Part shown: one piece after another, positions 38,966-46,830 of the stretch
Layout: each line of letters starts with the position of its first letter
How positions within the stretch are numbered: the stretch's first letter is position 1
Source: a virus
Virus record (IMG/VR): IMGVR_UViG_3300017917_003565
Location: 1 to 64,000 of that record
Length of the DNA stretch: 64,000 bases
Strand: one strand, 5' to 3'
Notes under the pieces: generated by a model
Database searches by the model: none
The model's input: only the letters and a program-made list of their open reading frames with translations
What the model was told of the DNA's origin: nothing
Made by a program: the position numbers and the translations under genes

Positions 38966-39280
38966 TTATTTGAACAGTATCATGGCCATGATCACGGCCT
39001 GTAGTATAAACCCAAGCCCAATAGTGATGACATTCAGCATGTCTTTGAGCACTACGGCCCGGAAAAACAACAGGATTAGGCCAGTCCACATGAACAACAC
39101 AATGTCCAGATTGGGTACCGTGTCGCTAAGTCCAGTCAACAGTGCAAGAAGCGTGGGCACGGTGGCACAGTGTATGACCACCACGGCCAACCAGCCCAGG
39201 GTTTCAGCACTTACTTTGGGCAAGTGTTGTTCTAACCAAGTTCTTGCAGATTTCAAATAAGCGTCTAATTTTTCGATCAT
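38966..39280 (-). CDS. Membrane protein (3 TM)
   Basis: Hydrophobic helices; coupled to hydrolase gene. Confidence 0.65.
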   Translation of the reverse strand: MIEKLDAYLKSARTWLEQHLPKVSAETLGWLAVVVIHCATVPTLLALLTGLSDTVPNLDIVLFMWTGLILLFFRAVVLKDMLNVITIGLGFILQAVIMAMILFK

Positions 39281-39837
39281 AGTTTTTCCGCATAAAAGAT
39301 GTGTCTCCCAAACTTGGCCACTTGAGGTTTACCCCATTGTGGTTTTATATAATCCGCATGGAAATACAGCGCATTCTTCACGCTGGGCAAGCGGAAGCCC
39401 TCTAGCAGGACTTTTTTGGCCACTTCTTCGGCTTCGCGCCAGTGAGCTGCATAAATGGGCCGGACACGGCTGGTGCCATCACAGAACCATGAGAACTGGC
39501 AGACCACTCGATCATAGACCACATTTTTTTGATACACAACGCCGCAGATGTCCGGAGCAAATCTGCCAGACTCCACGCGATTGATAGTGACCTGGGCCAC
39601 GGCTACTTTGCCTTCAAAGGGCTCAGTGGCGGCTTCCCAGTAGATGTTGCGTGTCAAACAGTCCAGTTGTTTGGTACGATCTGCCACGCTGATGAACCCT
39701 TGACGGGCGGCTTCATTGGTGCTTTTGAGGGCATCCAGTTTGGAATCAGTCACAGCGGTCACTGCGATGATCACGGCCAAGAAGCTGGCCAGTTTTACTG
39801 CTATGCTACCTAGATTGGACTTTGAAGAGATCTTCAA
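39277..39837 (-). CDS. SleB-like cell wall hydrolase
   Basis: CLTRNIYWEA, AVAQVTINRV, CQFSW, GRHIFY; TTG start after AAGGAG. Confidence 0.85.
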   Translation of the reverse strand: MKISSKSNLGSIAVKLASFLAVIIAVTAVTDSKLDALKSTNEAARQGFISVADRTKQLDCLTRNIYWEAATEPFEGKVAVAQVTINRVESGRFAPDICGVVYQKNVVYDRVVCQFSWFCDGTSRVRPIYAAHWREAEEVAKKVLLEGFRLPSVKNALYFHADYIKPQWGKPQVAKFGRHIFYAEKL

Positions 39838-39844
39838 TGTTTTC

Positions 39845-40125
39845 TCCTTCGGGCTCAAGTGGGCCGTTTCACCGGAGGTCCAGGATGGACACATTGACAG
39901 AAGCGTGGGCTAAAGAAAAGACCTCGGGCCTTCTTTGGCATACTGTCCTGGCGCGGTTTTGTCTTTCCCCGGGCCTGTACCATTTGTCAATGAAGAGGAT
40001 TTCCGAAGTCCTCTTGTAAAAGTGACCAGCTTCCCGGCACTGGTCGATCCGTTTTGGAGTAGATCTAGATTGTAATCTTCCGCTGATCGAATCAACGACA
40101 GCCGGATTGTTTTTTCTACTCTCTA
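39845..40125 (-). ncRNA. Candidate structured RNA upstream of sleB-like gene
   Basis: Several stems and two possible pseudoknots found by eye; TAAGTA late-type box just upstream. Confidence 0.55.
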
Positions 40126-40226
40126 AAATACTTAGTTTGTCATGAAAATCAGGCTCAAATAACCATGATTTTTCCAGCGTTTTTACCATAATATACAGCT
40201 ATTATAGCGCATCGCCGGTACGGTTG

Positions 40227-40751
40227 TCAATCCACATTGGGCGGAGGCATGGCCTTTAGTTTATCCCACACTGATTGTTTTTCTTTGATGTGTTTTTCCA
40301 AAGCTCGATAGCGATCACCCAGTTCTCGCAGTTCCTGCCATTCAGATTCCAGAGCTGGATTTACGGTCAACAGATTCAATCTTTCTCGAATTTCGCGTAT
40401 GGAGCCCATGAGACTTTCGCCATTGATTTCGATGTCAGCATCTTCACCGTTGACTTGTAGTTTGGCACCGGTGGGATTGCTGGTAATCCAGGGAGCCACG
40501 GTAGCTGTCCCTGTGTTGGTCCAAACATTGGGATAAGCATACCCGTTGGTCCCACTGACGTTATTGATCGCAGTAAGATCGCTGATGGTCAGAGTGGGCA
40601 CCGTGCCGCTGGCAGTGTAATAATCACCATCACCACTGTAGGAACCAATATGGCTGAAATCGAGCGTGATGCTGTTATTGTCATTGATGATGATGCTGTC
40701 ATCCATGGTTTGAGAGGCTGTGCCCGGAGGCACATTTATTGTAAGTGACAT
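40227..40751 (-). CDS. Hypothetical protein
   Basis: 174 aa, T/N-rich N-terminus, coiled-coil C-terminus. Confidence 0.6.
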   Translation of the reverse strand: MSLTINVPPGTASQTMDDSIIINDNNSITLDFSHIGSYSGDGDYYTASGTVPTLTISDLTAINNVSGTNGYAYPNVWTNTGTATVAPWITSNPTGAKLQVNGEDADIEINGESLMGSIREIRERLNLLTVNPALESEWQELRELGDRYRALEKHIKEKQSVWDKLKAMPPPNVD

Positions 40752-41839
40752 TAGGCTTTCCTTTCGAACTCACGCATGAATTCCACCAGTGCTTGTACGC
40801 CTGCCACAGGCATGGCGTTGTAGATGCAGGCACGCATACCGCCGGCCAGTTTGTGCCCACGCAGAGCTATCAGCCCTGCTTCGGTTGATTGGGTCAAAAA
40901 CTTTTCATTCAATCCTTCATCTTTGAGATAAAACGTCACATTGGCCCGAGAACGGCACTCCGGACTGACCCGATTTTCATACAGCGAACTGGAATCAATG
41001 TAGTCGTACAACAAAGATGACTTGATTTTGCCAAGCCGTTCCATTTCTGCCACTCCGCCTTGGCGTTTGAGCCATTTCAACACCAGTCCAGAAACATAGA
41101 TTGCAAAAGTAGGTGGAGTGTTTACCCAAGGCACAGTATTTTTGGCCCAGTCCCAAATGGTCGGAGTTATGGGCATGGCGTGTCCCAACAGATCCCGGCG
41201 AACTATGACCACAGTGACTCCGGCTGGCCCTATGTTTTTTTGTGCTGCAGCAAACAACACTCCGCACTTACTGACGTCCATGTGCCTTGATAGGATATTG
41301 CTAGAGACATCAGCCACTAATGGCACTCCCGCGGTATCAGGAAAATCTTCAAACTCCACTCCGCCTACAGTTTCGTTGGAACAGATATGCACATAAGCTG
41401 CATCTTGAGAGAGATTCCATTGATCGCGATCTGGAATGCTGGTAAACTGACCATTGGATGGACAAGCCACGATGTTTGCCTGCCCATATTTTTGTGCTTC
41501 TTGGGCCGACATCTCAGACCAGATACCAGTGACAACAAAATCAGCTGTGCGATTCTTGGACAATGGCAAGAGATTCATGGGTATGGCTGCATTTTGTCCA
41601 ATACCTCCTCCCTGCAACATCAATATTTCATAGTCATCGGGAATCGCCATCAACTCACGTAGGTCAGCCAATGTTTCATAATAGACTTCTAAGAACTCCT
41701 GGCTACGATGGTTGAGTTCCATCATGCTGGTGCCTACACCGTTCCAGTTCAACATTTCGTCGGCGACCTGTTGTAGGACTTCTTCAGGTAGAGCCGACGG
41801 TCCGGGAGTGAAGTTGTAAACCCGATGATCAAACTTCAT
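40751..41839 (-). CDS. serC: Phosphoserine aminotransferase
   Basis: YNFTPGPSALP, HRS, CSNETVGG, DVSS, AQKNIGPAG (PLP Lys), NTPP, GMRACIYN. Confidence 0.95.
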   Translation of the reverse strand: MKFDHRVYNFTPGPSALPEEVLQQVADEMLNWNGVGTSMMELNHRSQEFLEVYYETLADLRELMAIPDDYEILMLQGGGIGQNAAIPMNLLPLSKNRTADFVVTGIWSEMSAQEAQKYGQANIVACPSNGQFTSIPDRDQWNLSQDAAYVHICSNETVGGVEFEDFPDTAGVPLVADVSSNILSRHMDVSKCGVLFAAAQKNIGPAGVTVVIVRRDLLGHAMPITPTIWDWAKNTVPWVNTPPTFAIYVSGLVLKWLKRQGGVAEMERLGKIKSSLLYDYIDSSSLYENRVSPECRSRANVTFYLKDEGLNEKFLTQSTEAGLIALRGHKLAGGMRACIYNAMPVAGVQALVEFMREFERKA

Positions 41840-41844
41840 GATGA

Positions 41845-42033
41845 TTAGGTTTTTTGAGCCAGGGCTTCTTTTTCTGCGGTGATTTCTTTACGGCGTTCTT
41901 TGATGGCCTTGCTCATTTCTTGCAGAGCTTTGCGGGCGCGGGCAGCCGAGGCTTTGACGCCTTTGCCGGAGAACTTGTCATTTTCAGCCAAGTAGGTTTC
42001 GAATGCTGTTTTGATTGCTTCGTGATTGCTCAT
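41845..42033 (-). CDS. Hc1-like (histone H1-like) basic protein
   Basis: KGVKASAARARKALQE motif. Confidence 0.65.
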   Translation of the reverse strand: MSNHEAIKTAFETYLAENDKFSGKGVKASAARARKALQEMSKAIKERRKEITAEKEALAQKT

Positions 42034-42879: not shown

Positions 42880-43190
42880 TGTAAGTGCCCGGCTACCTTA
42901 TGTCACAGGCCCCGGGCTGGAATAATACCAATTCGATGTGCTGTTTACTATCCCGCCGCAGTCGGTGTGGCCAAGTTTAAGGACTCACTACCACCAACCC
43001 GCACCACTAAGGCTGGTGCGCCGCCCTTCATTTGCCCCGAAGCCGGGTTGACATAGGTTTTGCTACTGGACTATTTGCTAGACCTCAACGGCTTTACTCG
43101 AGTTTACGGTTTATTGATCTAGTTAGTCAGGCTTGATCCGGTCCATCGCTTCCAATAGCAAAACCTATATCAGGGGGCGAACCCCCTGTG
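42880..43190 (-). ncRNA. Candidate structured RNA(s): 22-bp rod plus hairpin cluster
   Basis: Inverted repeat 43049-43070/43151-43172 whose two mismatches are G-U pairs on the minus strand; UUCG hairpins. Confidence 0.6.
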
Positions 43191-45480: not shown

Positions 45481-45510
45481 ATTATAACCGAAAATGCCAT
45501 TTCTGGTCAA
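45481..45510 (-). promoter_or_regulatory. sigma70-type early promoter, repeat copy 1
   Basis: TTGACC-N18-TATAAT. Confidence 0.8.
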
Positions 45511-46201: not shown

Positions 46202-46237
46202 CTATATTATAACCGAAATGGGTATTTCTGGTCAACC
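46202..46237 (-). promoter_or_regulatory. sigma70-type early promoter, repeat copy 2
   Basis: TTGACC-N18-TATAAT; 36 bp identical to 46795-46830. Confidence 0.85.
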
Positions 46238-46794: not shown

Positions 46795-46830
46795 CTATAT
46801 TATAACCGAAATGGGTATTTCTGGTCAACC
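46795..46830 (-). promoter_or_regulatory. sigma70-type early promoter, repeat copy 3
   Basis: Identical to 46202-46237. Confidence 0.85.

Follow-up and report, generated by a model that had tools for sequence, protein, structure and literature searches.

A large structured leader RNA upstream of SleB-like endolysin genes in giant freshwater phages

Gene content, promoter and extent of the leader

The stretch of DNA analysed here (the window) comprises positions 1 to 64,000 of an IMG/VR virus record of 112 kb. The record is estimated to be one third complete, and its source is therefore a giant phage. On the minus strand, the window carries a gene for a SleB-like cell-wall hydrolase with an N-terminal signal-anchor (Table 1). 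Alignments with its homologues begin at residue 1 of the form that starts at TTG. The gene overlaps at its stop codon (ATGA) with the next one, which encodes a hydrophobic, membrane-like protein of 104 amino acids. This protein is likely a holin-type partner of the hydrolase, and together the two genes look like a lysis cassette. Upstream of the hydrolase gene lies a leader RNA of ~360 nt with its promoter, and just upstream of these is a gene for a protein of 174 amino acids.

Several other features are found around the cassette. An IF-1 homologue encoded by the phage (37915-38133, minus strand; PF01176, E = 4e-21) lies 1.7 kb downstream of it and could matter for initiation at the TTG or at the near-leaderless AUG of the leader. 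A homologue of the chlamydial-type histone-like protein Hc1 (41845-42033, minus strand; PF07432, E = 2e-11) adjoins an ORF (40751-41839, minus strand) that by eye resembles phosphoserine aminotransferase (SerC). Both are unusual auxiliary genes in a phage. An intergenic block of ~310 nt (42880-43190, minus strand) ahead of a lipoprotein gene is a candidate structured RNA.

The leader is preceded by a sigma70-type promoter, whose -10 spacing predicts a transcript start at about A40194. A first-pass annotation of this DNA had called the RNA late. The promoter is instead a perfect copy of the host-type sigma70 consensus and probably acts early. TTGACn-17/18-(TGn)TATAAT is retained at the same place in 59 of the 80 family members that have enough upstream DNA. 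Sigma70-like promoters are over-represented in the 64-kb window (7 observed vs 0.7 expected). Three near-identical ones (TTGACCAGAAAT...TTCGGTTATAAT) are found inside 1.4 kb on the minus strand (45481-45510, 46206-46235, and 46799-46828) and look like a repeated promoter module.

The first-pass annotation had proposed an RNA of ~280 nt (39845-40135) that begins just after a TAAGTA box. The element is real but longer, extending from about 40194 to the TTG at 39837, and the box, CUAAGUA in the transcript, is itself an invariant part of the RNA. This motif is also retained in divergent subfamilies. It was considered as a phage promoter and rejected, since the 64-kb window has a single CTAAGTAT and the motif does not vary within the RNA. 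No minus-strand terminator-like site is listed between the leader RNA and the SleB-like gene. We infer that the leader is not processed and that it regulates the SleB-like gene.

The RNA matches no family in Rfam 15, as the first-pass annotation had supposed. Nothing in the 64-kb window reaches a gathering score, 39700-40300 has no match at E<=10, and the element has none in six homologous loci (E<=1). The families covered include ydaO/c-di-AMP, glmS, T-box, preQ1, SAM-II/V, GOLLD, ROOL, tmRNA, and RNase P. ARAGORN finds no tRNA or tmRNA in 39000-41000, and a literature search found no description of the leader RNA.

Table 1. Features of the leader RNA locus in the window (helices are given as 5' arm / 3' arm)
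Feature	Position	Strand	Evidence or remarks
174-aa gene	3' end 40227	-	just upstream of promoter and leader
Sigma70-type promoter	40201..40230 (TTGACA 40230-40225, 18-nt spacer, TATAAT 40206-40201)	-	12/12 consensus match
Whole leader RNA, ~360 nt, predicted transcript start to TTG start of SleB-like gene	39835..40194	-	nhmmer and covariance-model homologues span all of it
106-codon open frame	39869..40189 (AUG 40189-40187, UGA 39871-39869 inside PK2a)	-	
CUAAGUA motif, single-stranded, invariant	40129..40135	-	TAAGTA identical in 83/83, preceding C nearly so
P2 domain (P2 enclosing P2a)	40057..40121	-	covariation
P2, GAGUAGA/UCUACUC	40121-40115 / 40063-40057	-	98.6% paired; two-sided changes at 6/7 pairs
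P2a, GCUG-UCG / CGA-(U)-CAGC	40102-40096 / 40089-40082	-	4 covarying pairs
PK1 + P3, H-type pseudoknot	40025..40051	-	covariation
PK1, CGG / CCG in P3 loop	40051-40049 / 40037-40035	-	99.6% paired
P3, GACCAG/CUGGUC	40044-40039 / 40030-40025	-	93% paired, 4 covarying pairs
P4 hairpin, AAGAGGA/UCCUCUU; C(UUCG)G-like tetraloop, AAA bulge	40015-40009 / 39999-39993	-	100% paired, 2 covarying pairs
Core closed by P5 (P6, invariant GAGUAUGSCA stretch, P8)	39892..39992	-	
P5 long-range helix, CAUUGACA/UGUCAAUG	39992-39985 / 39899-39892	-	86% paired
P6	39977-39969 / 39956-39948	-	every pair covaries
P8 hairpin, AGGC / GUCU	39931-39928 / 39922-39919	-	invariant
P9 hairpin, GUCCA-UCC-UGGAC	39890-39886 / 39882-39878 (39878..39890)	-	97.8% paired, 3 covarying pairs in alignment A3
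Expression platform (P10 enclosing PK2)	39844..39877	-	
P10, anti-SD CUCC / SD GGAG	39877-39874 / 39847-39844	-	97% paired, one-sided changes only
PK2a, GGUG / CACU	39873-39870 / 39861-39858	-	99.7% paired; G-C to C-G swap, 26 vs 57 sequences
PK2b	39866-39862 / 39855-39851	-	91% paired; 5/5 pairs covary
SleB-like cell-wall hydrolase (Hydrolase_2), N-terminal signal-anchor, TTG start	39277..39837	-	PF07486, E = 2e-24; PHROG endolysin families
104-aa hydrophobic, membrane-like protein gene, overlaps SleB stop (ATGA)	38966..39280	-	ORF list

Homologues and covariation of the leader RNA

The first homologous loci were retrieved through homologues of the SleB protein. Upstream of the SleB-like gene, the dozen nearest phage contigs share 74-83% identity with the window. 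A motif scan finds the leader in 40 viral contigs, one 2.4-kb contig of a Dehalococcoidia MAG, and more than 120 contigs from freshwater-lake metagenomes. With nhmmer, 107 full-length copies are obtained, 83 of which are unique. A second scan with a different conserved stretch adds 17 more divergent copies, which form two subfamilies, and a covariance model of the 3' core recovers all the divergent copies full length. The total exceeds 120 copies (83 unique full-length) from giant-phage contigs and freshwater metagenomes, and the contigs that carry the RNA reach 300-350 kb. More distant SleB loci (L014-L081) have no leader copy by nhmmer or covariance model. Hits of 15 bits in L058 and L060 (two) are far from the gene and were taken as noise. 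In the 112-kb record the leader RNA is single-copy. Against cultured phages, blastn with the region gives no match and tblastn with SleB finds only relatives below 60% identity; there is thus no cultured host system.

Of 82 genes downstream of the leader, all 82 are SleB-like, and so are those in the subfamilies that were recovered by another motif. The pair of SleB-like and membrane-like genes is found 3' of the leader RNA in every subfamily. Among the 83 members, the SleB-like gene starts with TTG in 57, ATG in 24, and GTG in 2, so that its start codon is a weak one (TTG) in most. Two loci (L003 and L012) have a different upstream gene, indicating that the leader RNA travels with SleB. Mean nucleotide identity is 76.9% in the leader and 75.8% in the adjacent coding sequence; by this measure, the leader is conserved as strongly as coding sequence.

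A comparison of the window with L084, L088, L099, L111, L113, and other loci shows that the hydrolase behind the leader RNA comes in two forms. The first, found in the window, has 186 amino acids and a signal-anchor-like N-terminus. The second has 213-228 amino acids and an apparent cleavable signal peptide. As both forms are exported, tight control of their translation would make sense. The sole match in the prokaryote genome collection is the 2370-bp contig of the Dehalococcoidia MAG from lake sediment (L122, CAITCX010000170.1). It has the full leader with a score equal to those of the phage copies, and is probably a mis-binned phage fragment and no evidence of a host.

The window sequence by itself folds no better than shuffled sequence (z = -0.95 for 39845-40135 and -1.24 for 39838-40200). 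The fold of the window sequence alone could therefore be chance, and its support rests on the relatives. For this reason 78 proposed pairs in 15 helices were tested on a MAFFT alignment (A3) of the 83 unique sequences, which was made with no structural information. As many as 90.5% of the cells pair in standard fashion, vs 34-43% when the partners are slid by 1-3 columns. Two-sided changes occur at 43 pairs (13-27 for slid partners) and in 563 cells (56-152 for slid partners), and none of 500 shuffles reaches the observed value. An unbiased scan over all column pairs ranks the same helices top. In a second alignment (A5) of 44 sequences, which includes the two divergent subfamilies and is model-fitted and so leans towards the model, 92.9% are paired and 22 of 40 pairs covary. 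Taken together, the alignments support at least ten covarying helices and two pseudoknots in the leader. The first-pass annotation had proposed covariation among homologues upstream of sleB as a check on the RNA, and the 83 unique copies with compensatory changes at 43 pairs answer it in the positive. Judged from sequence comparison, the RNA family is real and well supported. Structured cis-regulatory leaders are a known kind of RNA, and what is new here is the architecture.

All the stems read from the window by the first-pass annotation are indeed present in its sequence, and the alignment keeps some and contradicts others. GAGUAGA/UCUACUC, GACCAG/CUGGUC, AAGAGGA/UCCUCUU, and the 8-bp long-range stem reappear as P2, P3, P4, and P5, respectively. 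P4 gains further covarying pairs in divergent members, with changes from G-C/A-U to A-U/C-G or U-A in copies that were located without using the P4 motif. In P5, one A-U pair switches to G-C in ~21 sequences and to G-U in 9, and A.C never occurs. The proposed hairpin CGUUGAU/AUCAGCG was in the wrong register, and the helix that covaries at this place is P2a. The pairing GGC..GGGGAAAGAC / GUCUUUUCUU..GCC enclosed by P5 is broken by AAAC in most members. A nested stem of GAAAGAC with GUCUUUUC was likewise rejected, being contradicted by the alignment.

The description of the RNA as pseudoknot-rich holds, since PK1 and PK2 are pseudoknots. Their partners differ from those in both loop-loop pairings that had been proposed. 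In the first of these, AUCCG with CGGAU, the loop reads ACCAG in most members and CGGA stays fixed. In the second, CCAGGA with UCCUGG, CCAGG is the 3' arm of P6 and CCUGG an arm of P9. PK1 has compensated changes to CAG/CUG in L236 and to GGG/CCC in L193 and L242. PK2 (39873-39851) is an H-type knot inside the anti-SD:SD helix P10.

P9 covaries at 5 of 5 pairs in the alignment that includes the divergent subfamilies. P8 is invariant, and P10 has no two-sided changes because the SD is fixed. P1 is 65% paired as drawn and its register is uncertain. The P2 domain is absent from L084, L090, L104, L094, and L002, and both P2 and P3 are absent in some members, so that these are peripheral domains. 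The minimal core consists of a 5' AUGG-AAAAA motif, the invariant CUAAGUA, P4, P5, P6, P8, P9, and PK2. Note that subfamily C is without CUCC and PK2b.

Some further complementarities are found. Between 40166 and 40138 on the minus strand, CCUGA can pair downstream (P1) or, in the 5' direction, with A-rich sequence (in the window, GAAAAAUCA with UGAUUUUC), a possible alternative close to the leader AUG. The 5' UGGUA with UGCCG of the P3 loop, CGCA with UGCG, and UUUUAG with CUGAGG are complementary without clean compensatory support. The same is true of UCCU in the P9 loop with the SD, and of CGGAG in the P2 domain, which would be an anti-anti-SD for CUCCG.

An open reading frame within the leader

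An open frame of 106 codons begins ~5 nt 3' of the predicted transcript start with an AUG that has no SD, and it ends inside PK2a. The first-pass annotation had named coding conservation of this ORF as evidence that would speak against an RNA element. Such conservation is not seen. In 50 members, the entropies at codon positions 1/2/3 are 0.57/0.59/0.54 over the first 50 codons of the leader ORF, vs 0.39/0.26/1.08 in SleB, and pN/pS of the same 50 codons is 0.90. Past the P3 region, the same invariant nucleotides are read in two or three frames by different members, and one-base indels occur in the leader between close relatives. The flat entropy, the pN/pS value, and the shifting frame indicate that this is not a conventional gene. 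The encoded protein of 106 amino acids has no Pfam or PHROG match, and tblastn finds no relatives.

The openness of the frame is a different matter. The ATG is present in 62 of the 83 members and absent in 21. At least 93 codons are kept in 50 of the 62, and in 47 of the 62 its end falls within the last 35 nt upstream of the SleB start or the first 8 nt beyond it, the stops clustering on PK2 or on the start itself. Counted over all frames, stop triplets match the shuffled sequences in frequency, and it is the ATG frame that they avoid, with a mean of 1.1 vs 6.6 and 6.3 in the others. At variable columns there are 0.04 stops in the ATG frame vs 3.0 per other frame, and all nine conserved stop triplets are out of the ATG frame. 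In shuffles, the probability of an open frame is at most 0.007 per sequence. A test that counts events over all ATG-bearing members gives a marginal P = 0.046. In the very divergent subfamily B, 110 codons are kept in 6 of 8 members. A long open frame is found in 54 of the 59 members with the promoter vs 1 of the 21 without it, an association that may reflect a few evolutionary events only. Since the sequences are related, all these statistics represent few independent events. Within this limit of kinship, they argue that the openness of the upstream frame, which ends at the masking structure, is maintained by selection. The fold is kept without a long frame in 26 of the 83 members and in subfamily C.

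Probable translational control of the lysis enzyme

The first-pass annotation had suggested a novel ncRNA or cis-regulator. The strong covariation, the strict position upstream of SleB, and the continuation to the RBS without a terminator agree with this, and a cis-regulator fits better than a free-standing ncRNA. Our main reading is that the structured 5' leader of the endolysin mRNA is a cis-acting translational gate, possibly opened by ribosomes that transit the leader (probability roughly 0.7). The leader RNA probably gates the timing of lysis enzyme synthesis. The transcript from the sigma70 promoter would run without a terminator into the RBS of the exported SleB-like hydrolase. In the folded state, the SD GGAG would be sequestered by the 16S-like CUCC in P10, stacked on the compact H-type PK2. 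Predicted pairing of the SD is 0.78, only slightly higher than the 0.68 of shuffled sequences, and in the window CUC is also able to pair with a nearby GAG. An early, strong transcript would thus leave the lysis enzyme untranslated until the fold opens. A ribosome that gets through the leader frame would melt P10 and PK2 and hand over the SleB site. The conserved core (CUAAGUA, the P5/P6/P8 junction, and the loops) would set the frequency of opening, or bind a factor.

For the window and most members we favour the ribosome itself as the opener, at somewhat less than even odds. It would have to start on an AUG that lacks an SD, and only 5 nt lie ahead of this codon, which is unfavourable for leaderless initiation. 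Transit of a translating ribosome would also destroy the conserved fold. A narrower version, which we put forward tentatively and would not bet on, is an RNA lock threaded by the ribosome. Here selection would act on the openness of a ~110-codon frame and not on its peptide, the frame would end on the knot that hides the SD, and lysis would be timed by a contest of RNA folding with a (near-)leaderless ribosome. The phage IF-1 homologue might tune such a lock. A literature search did not find this combination described. Ribosome transit of an upstream frame is known to unmask the start of the next gene in the ermC and cat leaders, secM-secA, and mgtL-mgtA, and in MS2 a long-range structure ties downstream initiation to translation of the coat gene. 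As in these switches, the frame here ends on a masking structure. Known leader ORFs are short or peptide-specific (e.g., with an arrest motif), whereas the putatively translated frame of the present family has 105-140 codons, no peptide conservation, and a shifting reading frame, and it threads an elaborately conserved fold.

The translational gate could also be operated in other ways. In one alternative, P10 and PK2 are switched solely by what the conserved core binds, be it a small molecule, an ion, or a protein of phage or host origin, as a signal of late infection; the long frame would then be incidental, or would merely shield the leader, e.g., from Rho or RNases. The many invariant unpaired nucleotides and loops (CUAAGUA, GUGCCGYAAAG, GAAACAAAG, GAGUAUGSCA, and AGGCCCGAGGUCU) are typical of ligand- or protein-binding RNAs, the P2 domain is dispensable as peripheral domains are in large riboswitches, and the fold persists in the members without a long frame. 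An H-type pseudoknot at or next to the RBS controls initiation in preQ1-II, SAM-II/SAM-V, T4 gene 32, and the E. coli rpsO/S15 operators as well. Unlike these, the leader is several times larger and PK2 is almost without conserved unpaired (pocket) nucleotides. The ydaO riboswitch for c-di-AMP is likewise a large pseudoknotted leader, often with cell-wall hydrolase genes downstream, but the absence of any match to RF00379 or another family at E<=10 means that our RNA is not a member. Moreover, ~330 nt is large for a riboswitch, the gene content points to no candidate ligand or binding protein, and the avoidance of stops in one specific frame is left unexplained. This alternative ranks second and is on the whole unlikely. 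Passive masking is improbable. In T4, the start of the gene e lysozyme is masked by RNA structure on early transcripts (PMC3014915), and the soc, 49, and I-TevI mRNAs have inhibitory structures too (McPheeters et al. 1986, as reviewed in PMC3014915). The leader here would similarly keep an early sigma70 transcript of a lysis enzyme untranslatable and prevent premature synthesis, and a late phage promoter inside or after it would give a short, open mRNA. The host-type, probably early promoter agrees with this. The T4 structure is, however, a single hairpin, and escape from it depends on late promoters inside the structure (PMC3014915); no sequence relation to it is seen. One hairpin would suffice for masking, vs the ~360 nt, at least ten covarying helices, two pseudoknots, and conserved loops that are found. 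No internal promoter motif is conserved in the 3' third of the leader, whose last 60 nt vary freely with pairing kept, and the uniqueness of CTAAGTAT in the window argues against a general phage promoter.

The remaining two explanations dispense with a gate. A stand-alone or processed RNA that acts in trans (as a sponge, scaffold, or ribozyme) and is merely co-transcribed with SleB would be in keeping with the strong promoter of its own and with a size and complexity that resemble large bacterial and phage ncRNAs. We consider it very improbable, given that there is no terminator before the gene, that the 3' helices include the SD, and that the RNA is never found apart from a SleB-like gene, with no other covariance-model copy in the loci searched. 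An ordinary gene for a protein of 106 amino acids would account for the long ATG-initiated frame in most members and for the lack of stops in that frame only. It is hardly credible in view of codon positions and pN/pS that differ from the coding pattern in SleB, differences in frame among members, one-base indels among close relatives, the missing ATG in 21 of 83 members, the lack of Pfam, PHROG or tblastn relatives, and substitutions that are compensatory in RNA helices.

The burst size of a phage is set by the timing of lysis, and an exported endolysin that is made early is dangerous. To our knowledge, documented RNA-level control of phage lysis enzymes is confined to simple hairpins (T4 gene e) and to RNA phages. 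The leader described here represents a large RNA class without a catalogue entry, with more than 120 natural variants, that serves solely the lysis gene in giant phages of fresh water, none of them cultured. The consensus sigma70 promoter makes it directly testable in E. coli, and structural studies would gain from it a regulatory RNA fold that is new. Should the open frame prove functional, translation would be coupled to RNA unfolding in a new way.
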